Source of the DNA: an uncultured Alphaproteobacteria bacterium
GTDB taxonomy: Bacteria; Pseudomonadota; Alphaproteobacteria; CAAHEQ01; UBA3637
Direction: 5' to 3'
NCBI GenBank assembly: GCA_944391735.1
Contig: CALXUR010000003.1
Span: 12,287 to 76,286, forward strand
Length of the DNA stretch: 64,000 nt
Below are positions 24,500 through 27,204 of the stretch, one piece after another (positions within the stretch are counted from its first letter, which is position 1; each line of letters starts with the position of its first letter). Position numbers and translations under genes: made by a program. The notes beneath the pieces were generated by a model. The model did no database searches and had not been told where the DNA came from. It saw only the letters and a list, made by a program, of their open reading frames with translations.

Positions 24500-24775
24500 A
24501 TGTGTCCGTGTCCTTTTTGCACAGCGATAGCTATTTTATTGGCTCCTTTGTTATTCTTTAAACCGACGCGTGCGTGGTTAAAGAAGAAAATAAAAAAACA
24601 CCACGGTTCATGTGATGTGTGTCAACAGGCCGAACATGAAATGCATTTAAAAGAGCATACGGTTTGTCATTGCAACGCATGTCGGGCGGCCGAGAAAAAA
24701 CGTCATGAAAAATCAAAATCCGGCTTGGGAAAAAGACGGACGACTTCTAAAACAAATAAGGGGAAAAAGAAATAA
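24500..24775 (+). CDS. Hypothetical small His/Cys-rich basic protein with an N-terminal hydrophobic segment
   Basis: ATG sits 4 nt after the gyrA stop. Product MCPCPFCTAIAILLAPLLFF...HHGSCDVCQQAEHEMHLKEHTVCHCNACR. Possibly metal-binding. Confidence 0.35.
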   Translation: MCPCPFCTAIAILLAPLLFFKPTRAWLKKKIKKHHGSCDVCQQAEHEMHLKEHTVCHCNACRAAEKKRHEKSKSGLGKRRTTSKTNKGKKK

Positions 24776-24944: not shown

Positions 24945-25486
24945 AAAAATATTTAGTCGCCCTTTTAATGGGGTTATTTATCACAACAGCAGGAAAGGCA
25001 GAAACAATGGATAAGGATAATTTACTGTATATGGATTTAGATTACGGTCGCGTGGAGATTTTATTAAATCCGGAGATTGCGCCGAATCATGTGGCTCGAA
25101 TCAAGGAGTTAACGCGTCAGGGATTTTATGACGGTGTTAAGTTTCATCGGGTTATTCCCGGGTTTATGGCTCAAACCGGAGATCCGACGGGAACAGGCAT
25201 GGGCGGGTCCGGCAAAAAGTTAAAAGCCGAATTTAATAAAGAACCGCACGTTCGCGGAACGGTATCAATGGCGCGTGCAATGGATCCGGATAGTGCCGAC
25301 AGTCAATTTTTTATTTGTTTTGACGATGCCCGTTTTCTGGACGGACAATATACCGTTTTCGGAAAGGTTATTTCCGGAATGGAATATATTGATATGATTA
25401 AAGCCGGCACGTCCGCCAATAACGGGGCAGTTGCCAATCCGGATATTATCGTTAAAATGCAGGTCGCATCCGACGTTAAAGAATAA
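24941..25486 (+). CDS. ppiA: Periplasmic peptidyl-prolyl cis-trans isomerase (cyclophilin type)
   Basis: Signal peptide. FHRVIPGFMAQTGDP and other cyclophilin motifs. Confidence 0.85.
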   Translation: MKKYLVALLMGLFITTAGKAETMDKDNLLYMDLDYGRVEILLNPEIAPNHVARIKELTRQGFYDGVKFHRVIPGFMAQTGDPTGTGMGGSGKKLKAEFNKEPHVRGTVSMARAMDPDSADSQFFICFDDARFLDGQYTVFGKVISGMEYIDMIKAGTSANNGAVANPDIIVKMQVASDVKE

Positions 25487-25508
25487 GGGATCGATTGTGT
25501 ATTTCGGG

Positions 25509-25539
25509 CTCCCCCTTGCGAGCGGGGGAGTTTTTTTTT
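25509..25539 (+). terminator. Rho-independent terminator after ppi
   Basis: CTCCCCC-ttgcgagc-GGGGGAG followed by T9. Confidence 0.65.
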
Positions 25540-25566
25540 GACAAAAAAGAAAATGTGTGGTATACT
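25538..25566 (+). promoter_or_regulatory. Strong promoter with an extended -10
   Basis: TTGACA, 17 nt spacer, TGgTATACT. It is followed by the AAGGAGG RBS of the 25594 ORF. Confidence 0.6.
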
Positions 25567-25593
25567 GTAATTGTATTGAAAAGGAGGCCGAAC

Positions 25594-25743
25594 ATGACAG
25601 GATTAAAAGTATTGGATTCGATTTTGACGATTGCCGCTGTTTTGGAGGCGGCCTATAAAGCCGGTCAATTTATATCTAAAGCCGTTACACGGAATAATAA
25701 ACCGACGCCGCGGCGAAAAAATTTGGCCTATTGTCGGTCGTAA
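25594..25743 (+). CDS. Hypothetical small protein (49 aa), apparently highly expressed
   Basis: Consensus promoter, perfect RBS, and terminators on both sides. Product MTGLKVLDSILTIAAVLEAAYKAGQFISKAVTRNNKPTPRRKNLAYCRS. Confidence 0.45.
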   Translation: MTGLKVLDSILTIAAVLEAAYKAGQFISKAVTRNNKPTPRRKNLAYCRS

Positions 25744-25756
25744 TAAAAAAAGACAT

Positions 25757-25786
25757 AAAGGGGGATAAGTGCCCCCTTTTTTATTT
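25757..25786 (+). terminator. Rho-independent terminator
   Basis: AAAGGGGG-ataagtg-CCCCCTTT followed by a T-run. Confidence 0.6.
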
Positions 25787-25813
25787 GACTTTCACATTAT
25801 CTTCTGTTAATGT
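25785..25813 (+). promoter_or_regulatory. Candidate promoter of a non-coding transcript
   Basis: TTGACT (25785-25790), 17 nt spacer, TAATGT (25808-25813). Confidence 0.45.
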
Positions 25814-25819
25814 TTCAAC

Positions 25820-25979
25820 CGCAAGCGAGGTGCTTGCAGAGGCTCGAAACCTCTATGACGCTGTCTGCCCAATCGGGCGGATGTCGGGGAATAAGATCCC
25901 TTGGGGTCAAATAACCCGAGCTGTGCGTTATCAGCTTTCGAGCTCCGCCCACCTTGGTCTGTGCCAAGGTGGTTTTTTT
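25820..25979 (+). ncRNA. Candidate structured small RNA of about 160 nt (family unknown), bounded by its own promoter and terminator
   Basis: Several local hairpins (GCAAGC-gaggt-GCTTGC; AGAGG-ctcgaaa-CCTCT; GAGCTG...CAGCT) and a terminal CCACCTTGG-tctgtg-CCAAGGTGG hairpin followed by T7. The overlapping track ORF 25731..26018 runs through two terminators. Confidence 0.35.
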
Positions 25980-26004
25980 AACTTAAAAAATAAAGGAGCA
26001 TATC

Positions 26005-26400
26005 ATGCAAAATTTTAATCAACTATATATCACTCATCTGATCGGACAGGATATCGATCGTATCCGACACGAAATCGCTTTACTTTGTCGCCGTTCCAGA
26101 GTGGAACAAGCCTTAAGCCTTCGTATGGTTGAACAACAAACCGGCGGCGCGGTAACGGCGAAACAGCTGGATAAAATCGAAACGGAACAAAAACAAAAGA
26201 TAAATCTGGATTACTTGTGCTTGTTGGCGCGATCCCTGAATCGCCGGTTACAGGTTACTTTTATTCCGATTGATGAAACAGAGAAACTGACCATCCCTCG
26301 TTCGTGGTTGAAGTCGATGTTCGCTGTGGAACCACCCGTCTGTCAATCGGATGAGTCGACAAAAACGACGACACAACCGACACCCGTCTGTTCGGATTAA
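26005..26400 (+). CDS. XRE-family helix-turn-helix transcriptional regulator
   Basis: HTH-like segment LSLRMVEQQTGGAVTAKQLDKIETEQKQKINLDYLCLLARSL. Confidence 0.55.
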   Translation: MQNFNQLYITHLIGQDIDRIRHEIALLCRRSRVEQALSLRMVEQQTGGAVTAKQLDKIETEQKQKINLDYLCLLARSLNRRLQVTFIPIDETEKLTIPRSWLKSMFAVEPPVCQSDESTKTTTQPTPVCSD

Positions 26401-26469
26401 ATCAACTATCCCCGCCCCTCTCGGGCGGGGATAACGATATCCGATTTTTATGATAAAAAATCAAAATTG

Positions 26470-27204
26470 TTAATACCGAACGGAAATAAAGTAAAGGCCG
26501 GACGCGGGTGCCGTTTCCCCGCCTTGTTTGCGATCGCACGCCTTAAACGCGTGTTTGAAATCATCGACCGTCCATTTGCCACACCCGACATAGGCCAGGC
26601 TGCCGGCTATATTTCGGACTTGATGATATAAAAAGGATCGGGCTTTGATTCGGATGAAAACAAAATCACCCTGACGGGAAACGGTCAATTCATCAATCGT
26701 TTTAACGGGGGATTTGGCTTGACATTGAGCGGCGCGAAACGTGGACAAATCATGCTTGCCAATCAATAAATCGGCGGCCTGTTGCATTTTAACTTCATCC
26801 AACGGATGAACAAACCACCAGACGCGTTGATGATCCAAGGCCGGCGGAAAACGGGTATTTTGAATTTTATACAAATACTCTCGTTGACGGGCACTAAAAC
26901 GCGCATGGAAATCATCGGAAACCGCTTCAACGGATTTGATTGAAATCGGATGGGGACGAACCAAAGCGTTAATTGATTCCCGCAGTTTATACACATTTTG
27001 TTCCGTGGCACAGTCAAAATGCGCAACTTGTCCGACGGCGTGAACACCGGCGTCCGTTCGGCCGCTGCCTTGAACATCTACGGGTTCCCGAACGGCGATT
27101 GATACGGCTTTTTCCAAGACGCTTTGAACGGACAGATGTCCCTCTTGTTTTTGCCATCCGACAAACGGTGTTCCGTCATATTCAACCGTCAATTTATACC
27201 GCAA
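26470..27204 (-). CDS. truA: tRNA pseudouridine(38-40) synthase
   Basis: RYKLTVEYDGTPFVGWQKQ...GRTDAGVHA is a TruA signature. Confidence 0.9.
   Translation of the reverse strand: MRYKLTVEYDGTPFVGWQKQEGHLSVQSVLEKAVSIAVREPVDVQGSGRTDAGVHAVGQVAHFDCATEQNVYKLRESINALVRPHPISIKSVEAVSDDFHARFSARQREYLYKIQNTRFPPALDHQRVWWFVHPLDEVKMQQAADLLIGKHDLSTFRAAQCQAKSPVKTIDELTVSRQGDFVFIRIKARSFLYHQVRNIAGSLAYVGCGKWTVDDFKHAFKACDRKQGGETAPASGLYFISVRY

Follow-up and report, generated by a model that had tools for sequence, protein, structure and literature searches.

A multi-copy structured RNA upstream of an XRE-fold gene in uncultured Alphaproteobacteria, with a possible relation to sRNA-Xcc1 and c4

We analyzed a 64,000-nucleotide (nt) stretch of DNA from an uncultured Alphaproteobacteria bacterium (contig CALXUR010000003.1, positions 12,287 to 76,286; hereafter the window, whose own numbering is used throughout) and followed up an intergenic unit at 25785-25979, which an earlier note had read as a promoter-to-terminator unit for a structured non-coding RNA. 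Judged from its sequence, the unit is a gene of this kind: it specifies a structured RNA of about 160 nt, and the RNA belongs to an uncatalogued family with several copies in uncultured Alphaproteobacteria. The original reading is strongly backed by conservation and covariation. Direct support was obtained for a conserved cassette of promoter, RNA, terminator and ribosome-binding site (RBS), for a covarying, self-paired fold on the + strand, for intramolecular pairing of two boxes with two segments of the 3' half and, at the level of a structure model, for an XRE-type fold of the protein encoded next. Going beyond the earlier note, the RNA forms a multi-copy family, is conserved far above the neighboring protein, resembles sRNA-Xcc1 in its 3' half and follows a c4-like two-box logic. 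We lean, with modest confidence, towards the interpretation that it is a self-paired chromosomal variant of the sRNA-Xcc1/c4 class, which would serve both as an abundant terminated RNA and as a leader feeding the downstream gene. A trans-acting small RNA (sRNA) and a cis-acting attenuator, between which the earlier note had left the choice, are not mutually exclusive here: the promoterless gene requires the RNA to be its leader as well, and at the strong terminator most transcripts should end as free RNA.

Sequence reading over 25200-26700 placed the unit downstream of a peptidylprolyl isomerase (PPIase) gene, its ppiB-side neighbor, which ends at 25486, and directly behind a gene of 49 amino acids (aa), whose terminator (25757-25779) abuts the -35 hexamer of the RNA promoter. 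The promoter reported there earlier, TTGACT and TAATGT separated by 17 nt, was found as described (Table 1). In 7 homologous loci TTGAC, the 17-nt spacing and TAnnnT are all kept, with -10 forms including TATTCT, TATCCT and TATTAT, and the TG of the extended -10 is likewise conserved across loci. TTGACT/TAATGT was missed by a promoter consensus scan, since its -10 hexamer agrees with TATAAT at only 3/6 positions; the promoter call is backed by conservation. It is predicted to be a constitutive-looking sigma-70 promoter of the extended -10 type, from which transcription would start at about 25819-25821, and the mature RNA probably spans 25820-25979. The similarity between loci starts about 37 nt 5' of the RNA, exactly at the promoter. 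For the terminator, the T7 tract and the strength assigned to it earlier hold, while the stem was counted at 10 pairs (6 G-C) instead of 9, with a 4-nt loop and a hairpin energy of -16.2 kcal/mol; this terminator is kept in all copies. As noted before, the open reading frame (ORF) at 25731-26018 (95 aa) is the sole ORF covering the entire unit and runs across both terminators. Two shorter ORFs lie within it (25810-25914, + strand, and 25815-25967, - strand); the ATG of the 34-aa ORF falls in the -10 hexamer, and this ATG is not conserved in other loci. Between the U-tract and the ATG of the downstream 131-aa ORF there are 25 nt in the window, which leaves no space for a separate promoter; a spacer of 25-30 nt with the RBS is kept across loci. 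One candidate promoter for the 131-aa gene, TTAACT-17-TATCAT (25978-26006), was rejected, since its -10 runs into the ATG, from which onward the N-terminal part of the protein is conserved. The hairpin behind the 131-aa ORF, which also follows the copy in locus L001, is probably the 3' end of the unit. No tandem repeats were present in 25300-26700 and no terminal inverted repeats or target duplications were found around the unit; a 13-nt direct repeat (26014/26397) was discarded, being within chance expectation and absent from other loci.

Table 1. Coordinates of the RNA unit and its parts in the window
Feature	Position	Strand	Description
Sigma-70-type promoter	-35 TTGACT 25785-25790; 17-nt spacer; TG 25805-25806; -10 TAATGT 25808-25813	+	sequence read and conservation
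Whole RNA, match of covariance model R1	25814..25982	+	200.7 bits, E 1.4e-51
P1	25821..25837	+	invariant 6-base-pair hairpin GCAAGC/GCUUGC, loop GAGGU; no covariation
5' extension with two boxes	25839..25861	+	b1 (GGCUCGAAA, 5' strand of P2) and a1 (AUGACGC, 25855-25861, 5' strand of P3), 5 nt between
P4 hairpin	25863..25882	+	GUCUGCCC/GGGCGGAU; nearly invariant; two invariant G.U pairs
sRNA-Xcc1-like 3' domain	25875..25958	+	RF02221, 30.2 bits, model positions 1-87 in full
P5 long hairpin	25884..25919	+	two invariant A-rich internal loops (AA/AA, AG/AA); variable tip with CUUG or UNCG-type loops
a' and b'	25925..25945	+	a' (GCGUUAU, 25925-25931), 3' strand of P3; b' (UUUCGAGCUC, to 25945), 3' strand of P2
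Intrinsic terminator	25949..25979 (stem-loop 25949-25972)	+	CCACCUUGGU-CUGU-GCCAAGGUGG, then U7
RBS and 131-aa ORF	RBS AAGGAG 25993-25998; ORF 26005-26400 (ATG 26005)	+	XRE-fold helix-turn-helix (HTH) protein (structure model)
G+C-rich hairpin	26410..26430	+	CCCCGCCC...GGGCGGGG, 3' of the 131-aa ORF

The RNA at 25815-25980 has a minimum free energy of -74.6 kcal/mol compared with -52.6 +/- 4.2 kcal/mol for shuffled sequences (z = -5.2), and 0/200 shuffles were as stable. RNAalifold, applied to nine copies, gave a 5' hairpin (P1), a long-range helix (P2+P3, 25839-25861 with 25925-25945) enclosing the hairpins P4 and P5, and the terminator; this fold replaces the several short hairpins described earlier. 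Base pairs were counted on a MAFFT alignment of the nine copies (501 cells), of which 96.6% are standard pairs. Covariation in homologous regions, proposed in the earlier note as a check, was found at 12 pairs changed on both sides, 10 of them in P2/P3 (helix 2, 19 pairs). None of 500 column shuffles reached any of the five covariation measures, and with partners slid by 1-3 columns only 31-45% of the cells were paired. In P3 the nine aligned copies carry five distinct, fully complementary sequences, and a sixth is found in the copy of L024. Covariation neither supports nor contradicts P1, P4, the junctions and the internal loops, as these are invariant. The opposite strand folds nearly as well (z = -5.9). 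The alignment, however, contains 45 G.U cells to 2 A.C cells, and read on the other strand 88% of the cells would be paired instead of 96.6%; together with the promoter and the U-tract, this places the RNA on the + strand.

The long-range helix joins the boxes b1 and a1 of the 5' extension to b' and a' (the b' segment of the window RNA is also written UUUCGAGCU). The b1/a1 boxes pair with b'/a' in 6/9 copies with 16-17 contiguous pairs in total, and the two-box score of the copies against their own 5' extension sums to 126 compared with a null mean of 75.5 and a null maximum of 96. Several alternative pairings can be drawn. GGGCGG in P4 has a second possible partner in CCGCCC (25945-25950), which corresponds to the closing stem in the alignment to the sRNA-Xcc1 model and whose last two bases are the first two of the terminator stem (start 25949); a GCUG/CAGC hairpin is possible as well and is invariant. 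The P1 loop GAGGU is Shine-Dalgarno-like and may pair with its complement CACCU in the 5' arm of the terminator. AGAGG/CCUCU, GGGCGG/CCGCCC and GAGGU/CACCU are nearly invariant, with one double change from G-C to A-U in AGAGG/CCUCU of L010.

The family was collected by way of the 131-aa protein. A first search returned 11 relatives and a profile search 27 clusters among 5.8 billion; contigs were fetched for 12 of the relatives and scanned with a covariance model (R1) built from seven copies of the RNA. Full copies scoring 150-202 bits lie directly upstream of the protein gene in the window, L001, L002, L003, L006, L007, L008, L010 (identical to L011), L013 and L024, so that a full RNA copy precedes every intact member of the protein family that was fetched with upstream sequence; L004 is the same locus as L002. 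Partial copies are found at the ends of three short contigs (L014-L016), and short contigs break inside the RNA. The identity to the window copy is 81% in L013 and 86% in L010, compared with 32-33% for the matching proteins. The flanking genes vary by contig and comprise ppiB/truA (window), adhE/frr, adhE/ankyrin, thrS/metallophosphatase, pyrG/gltX, ?/atpF, an M16 peptidase region, lgt/dnaE and DUF3126/pckG. One sample contains three modules on three scaffolds (L007, L010, L013), and two RNA copies occur on one contig in L002 and also in L025. From these contigs we infer that the RNA is a multi-copy repeated element also in terms of copies per genome. The mismatched halves of L007, L008 and L010/L011 resemble halves of other copies, a patchwork which suggests recombination between copies; as L010 was assembled identically in two samples (L011), at least this copy is probably a real recombinant and not an assembly chimera. 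L001 and L008 share a 97.5%-identical stretch of 164 nt upstream, yet their protein variants and downstream genes differ.

A more distant member was detected on the minus strand of L025 (19658-19502, 42.5 bits). Its own fold gives the same architecture (z = -9.2), and its boxes differ (UAAGAAC, UCAUAAC). L002 and L025 additionally contain stand-alone Xcc1-like RNAs (L002 3548-3629, 33.6 bits; L025 19859-19776, minus strand, 36.3 bits), which are devoid of 5' boxes, sit about 190-270 nt upstream of a full-length copy and have antisense segments nearly identical to those of that copy. The stand-alone copy of L002 has a TTGACA promoter, and behind this copy lies a C-rich, G-poor tract of about 130 nt; that of L025 has its own terminator. 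On L025, the protein family member P0027 (9775-10462) shares the M16-peptidase neighborhood of L010 and is devoid of the RNA, the promoter and the conserved protein N-terminus; it looks like a decayed module. L005, from a genome scan with the protein, was a false positive (ribosomal protein L25, chance match to RHEIALLCR). An exact 21-mer scan of metagenome contigs gave one match (L009), which is due to chance and falls within a high-GC sequence shortly before a gltX-like coding region. An exact 21-mer scan of viral contigs gave no match, and blastn of the unit against plasmid and phage collections gave nothing.

The earlier note had assigned the 131-aa protein to the XRE family of regulators, which is upheld by the predicted fold and not by Pfam gathering scores. 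No Pfam model reached its gathering score, and the window protein alone matched only HTH_25 (E 0.18). With distant paralogues added, HTH_3 touched 5/10 members (best E 0.019) and HTH_31 and HTH_26 appeared weakly, all below the cut-off. A sequence profile search of the PDB with close homologues only gave nothing; with paralogues added, the best match was HipB(Lp) (E 0.16). A shallow alignment had at first yielded an AlphaFold model without any fold match, a helical hairpin that we took for an artefact and set aside. The second AlphaFold (AF2) model, made with a diverse alignment, has a predicted local distance difference test score (pLDDT) of about 90 over residues 20-80 and contains the five-helix fold of the Cro/C1 type. 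The top 50 Foldseek matches were all XRE-type HTH-domain proteins (HipB, C.Esp1396I, ClgR, SinR, DdrO), the best ones covering residues ~20-85 with a template modeling (TM) score of 0.65-0.80 on the target, a root-mean-square deviation of 1.2-1.7 Å and a probability of 1.0. By its modeled fold the protein thus appears to belong to the XRE family, for which the sequence provides no proof. In contrast to typical XRE/Cro-C1 proteins, it begins with a long helix and ends in a disordered, variable tail, and it belongs to a tiny family tied to the RNA.

At gathering thresholds, the Rfam scan of the whole window returned two tRNAs only and no family near the RNA; in the RNA region neither Rfam nor ARAGORN matched SRP RNA, tmRNA, RNase P, 6S RNA or a tRNA, in agreement with the earlier note, which had recognized no motifs of SRP RNA, tmRNA, RNase P or 6S RNA. 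The note had named an Rfam hit to a known family as a result that would speak against it, and only sub-threshold matches were obtained. In the permissive scan the top match was sRNA-Xcc1 (RF02221) at 25875-25958, aligned over the full 87-position model, and RF02221 was likewise on top in four further copies (33.1-36.3 bits), namely both in L002 and both divergent ones in L025. Permissive matches to SraG and MicX align terminators only and were set aside. By the thresholds of the two models, the RNA belongs to neither RF02221 nor RF01695 (C4). The motifs GG.CGG...GAAUAA...AAUAAC...UUUCGAGC.CCG.CCACC are common to the window RNA and sRNA-Xcc1; next comes a CCACC...GGUGG hairpin, which in sRNA-Xcc1 of Aeromonas and of the Stx-type/Shigella phages likewise overlaps the closing stem. 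Both RNAs immediately precede a gene that encodes a small DNA-binding protein, in the window an XRE-fold protein among housekeeping genes, and both can be multi-copy, in some cases in tandem (PMC12189769). The positions of a'/b' are those that serve as antisense segments in genuine sRNA-Xcc1, and b1/a1 face b'/a' in the same order and with similar spacing as the downstream targets of genuine sRNA-Xcc1 do.

These targets were derived from a set of genuine sRNA-Xcc1 loci (L017-L023, 61-76 bits) from a Neisseria record, a Nitratidesulfovibrio plasmid, an Aeromonas record, Shigella phage Ss-VASD, an Stx2a-converting phage, a Moraxella phage and a Vibrio phage. For the majority of these loci, the gene 40-250 nt downstream of sRNA-Xcc1 is of the antirepressor, KilA-N or ORF6N-like type; in the remaining loci it is annotated only as hypothetical or is unannotated. 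Published examples include symE downstream of sRNA-Xcc1 in Xanthomonas integron cassettes (10.1101/2025.06.18.660453) and an ORF6N gene with sRNA-Xcc1 in APSE phage (10.1101/2020.03.17.996009). In 7/8 genuine loci the RNA has two segments, one forming the loop of its second hairpin and the other following on the 3' side, whose complements are two boxes that lie just 5' of, or overlap, the Shine-Dalgarno sequence or start codon of the next gene. The paired sequences are locus-specific: in Vibrio phage Cla UUUUCCUUGU pairs with ACAAGGAAAA, and in Ss-VASD UUUCGAG pairs with CUCGAAA and UCUUUUGG with CCAAAGGA. The ordered two-box score of the genuine loci sums to 111 (null mean 74.7, null maximum 91; reached in 0/500 shuffles); this test with shuffles replaced RNAduplex on whole RNAs, which had produced meaningless long duplexes. 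The complementarity implies that genuine sRNA-Xcc1 would exert c4-like translational control over antirepressor-type genes. Rfam files sRNA-Xcc1 as a trans sRNA without a clan. In the Stx2a-converting phage (L021), a true C4 recovered by the RF01695 model (51-136, 74 bits) lies upstream of sRNA-Xcc1 (694-777, 76 bits) on the same strand at a distance of 560 nt, and a similar adjacency of C4, isrK and sRNA-Xcc1 has been described in Xylella (PMC12189769); the two families appear to work in the same immunity-type region.

The likeness to c4 concerns the logic of the pairing. In the account of Weinberg et al. (2010, PMC2864571), the a'/b' segments of P1 c4 RNA act on a2/b2 at the RBS of icd, the a1/b1 sites upstream of c4 in P1 are proposed to compete with a2/b2, and the c4 closing stem often runs with its 3' half into the 5' half of a terminator. 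The window RNA shares with P1/P7 c4 (RF01695; the 'c4-a1b1' motif) a position upstream of a linked gene, two short antisense segments, complementary boxes upstream in the same transcript, a possible closing stem whose 3' half overlaps the 5' half of the terminator, and stable UNCG/CUUG tetraloops on the long hairpin. It differs in that the a1/b1-type pairing, a proposed competitor in that description of c4, forms a permanent, covarying structural helix; moreover, the downstream gene is of the XRE type instead of icd/ant, the context is not that of a phage, and an a2/b2 target is missing. Compared with sRNA-Xcc1, the window RNA is twice as long, owing to a 5' extension with P1, the boxes b1/a1 and the 5' strand of P4, and it does not target the ribosome-binding region of the next gene as genuine members do. 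Genuine members come from Beta- and Gammaproteobacteria and Desulfovibrionia, where they are carried by phages, integron cassettes and plasmids, whereas the window RNA is chromosomal, occurs in uncultured Alphaproteobacteria, lies among housekeeping genes and had no match in the phage, plasmid and viral collections.

Taken together, we propose that the 3' half of the window RNA may be a distant relative of sRNA-Xcc1 and the P1 c4 antisense RNA. Its a'/b' segments are paired within the molecule to b1/a1, which correspond to the a1/b1 sites upstream of c4 in P1, into a compact, self-occluded fold in which c4-type antisense elements would be held inactive by built-in boxes. Since the terminator is strong (-16.2 kcal/mol and U7), most transcripts should stop there and end as a stable, free RNA of about 160 nt. 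The downstream gene without a promoter would be expressed by terminator read-through only, which requires the RNA to be a leader as well; the minority of read-through transcripts would be the sole mRNA of the XRE-type gene, and as a leader the RNA would keep its expression low, possibly in a conditional manner.

Several observations weigh against this proposal. The RF02221 scores (30-36 bits) remain below the gathering threshold of 53 and below the 61-76 bits of genuine members, and C4 (RF01695) gave no match at E <= 10 in 25480-26100, which together make homology plausible, not proven. Covariation does not favor the canonical Xcc1 fold, since a'/b' are taken up by the 5' extension: it supports P2/P3/P4, in which a'/b' and GGGCGG are engaged and which are incompatible with the GGGCGG/CCGCCC closing stem and the GCUG/CAGC hairpin, possible and invariant as these are. 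No a2/b2-type target was detected at the downstream RBS (score 90 compared with a null mean of 89.4, p = 0.57), and a search of the 64-kb window for another box pair or for trans targets of a'/b' returned only the RNA's own sequences, so that no substrate for the c4-style regulatory step was found there. A search for a read-through switch found none, and in silico blocking of the 5' boxes left the terminator intact. In 3/9 copies (L007, L008, L010) the 5' and 3' halves are mismatched. The divergent copy of L025 (19658-19063, minus strand) precedes a 139-aa lipoprotein gene (MKKSLFMLLLASSLLSGC...) and no HTH gene, so the RNA cassette is not strictly tied to one gene family. All homologue sequences come from metagenome assemblies.

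Among the other explanations, we consider a purely trans-acting sRNA unlikely. In this case the terminated RNA, or an Xcc1-like 3' fragment cleaved 5' of GGGCGG, would pair with distant mRNAs and the neighboring gene would be a leak-through passenger. The strong terminator with its U7 tail fits such a role, as do the type of downstream gene, which is not fixed (the lipoprotein in L025), and the description of Xanthomonas sRNA-Xcc1 as trans-acting reported for Chen et al. (2011); in the stand-alone Xcc1-like copies with their own promoter (L002, L025) a'/b' would be free, as these have no 5' boxes. In the full-length RNA, however, a'/b' are hidden in the covarying intramolecular helix, the only box pair within 64 kb is the RNA's own, and the terminator is in every case succeeded, at a fixed distance of about 25-30 nt and with no promoter in between, by the RBS of the next gene, which points to a functional link in cis. 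Another alternative is a ligand- or protein-responsive, riboswitch-like attenuator, whose invariant junctions and internal loops would bind a metabolite or protein and thereby alter read-through into the paralogous regulators. The pattern of covarying stems around invariant junctions, internal loops and P1 loop is riboswitch-like, the same RNA stands before very different paralogues, as expected of a shared input signal, and expression of the downstream gene requires read-through of the terminator. The alternative pairings AGAGG/CCUCU, with its double change in L010, and GGGCGG/CCGCCC, which overlaps the terminator base, could be taken in the same sense, but they are nearly invariant and thus without support from covariation. 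As no conserved anti-terminator was found, the terminator persists in unconstrained and box-blocked folds, no known riboswitch model matches and the likeness to an antisense-RNA class would account for its origin more simply, we regard this explanation as very unlikely.

Two further readings concern the unit as a module or as DNA. In the type III toxin-antitoxin system ToxIN, a promoter, a non-coding RNA and an intrinsic terminator precede a promoterless protein gene expressed via read-through. The gene layout of the window unit is identical to that of ToxIN and CptIN, and multi-copy modules with fast-diverging proteins would suit an RNA antitoxin and a protein toxin as well. The RNA, on the other hand, has no tandem repeat array and the modeled protein fold is that of an XRE HTH DNA-binding protein, not of a ToxN/AbiQ-type endoribonuclease; furthermore, one copy has lost the RNA and the protein N-terminus together instead of one partner alone, and another RNA copy precedes a lipoprotein gene, which renders a toxin-antitoxin-like pair highly improbable. 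Hardly any weight can be given to a DNA-level element either. Its inverted repeats would only resemble RNA helices, and it could be a recombination site, an operator array or a miniature mobile element. The genomic context that differs in almost every contig, the short contigs that break inside the unit and the folding of the opposite strand would be in line with it, but it conflicts with the strand bias of G.U over A.C cells and the loss of pairing on the other strand, with the promoter and U-tract oriented for the + strand and the similarity that starts exactly at the promoter, and with the lack of terminal inverted repeats and target duplications. The self-paired sRNA-Xcc1/c4 variant remains the interpretation we favor.

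Two neighboring small genes were noted in the window. The 49-aa gene upstream of the RNA (25594-25743, + strand; MTGLKVLDSILTIAAVLEAAYKAGQFISK...) is free-standing, with a strong RBS, a promoter at 25538-25566 (TTGACA-17-TATACT, 11/12 consensus positions, with TG), its own terminator (25757-25779) and a further terminator listed alongside (25506-25533). Its only family match is weak (DUF6900, E 0.014), and no homologue is present in the fetched loci; the gene does not belong to the RNA module. A 91-aa ORF (24500-24775, + strand), located between gyrA and the PPIase gene, starts with a hydrophobic N-terminus, ends in a lysine-rich tail and contains several CxxC/HxxC-like motifs; it gave no Pfam match at E <= 0.1.

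The window RNA adds a well-supported structured RNA family that is absent from Rfam 15, in uncultured Alphaproteobacteria for which we know of no RNA biology. Its evolution is unusual in that a non-coding RNA has remained more than 80% identical, although the paralogous regulators encoded behind it have diverged to about 30% identity. It ties together sRNA-Xcc1, the P1 c4 immunity RNA and a chromosomal RNA, which are otherwise filed separately, and the two-box complementarity gives sRNA-Xcc1, widespread in phages and integrons and poorly understood, a concrete and testable mechanism. More speculatively, and in our view quite unlikely, the copies could form a genome-wide regulatory set, in which each module would carry its own 'barcode' (a covarying pair of box and antisense segment) together with a fast-diverging XRE regulator, and in which free Xcc1-like RNAs, as stand-alone copies or processed 3' domains, would open specific modules in trans; alternatively, the invariant core would be an aptamer for some signal that releases the whole regulator family at once. 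If the barcode set were true, a phage c4 immunity switch would have been domesticated and multiplexed to run host gene regulation. If the self-paired form is regulated at all, the unit would represent a phage antisense switch rebuilt into a host leader.

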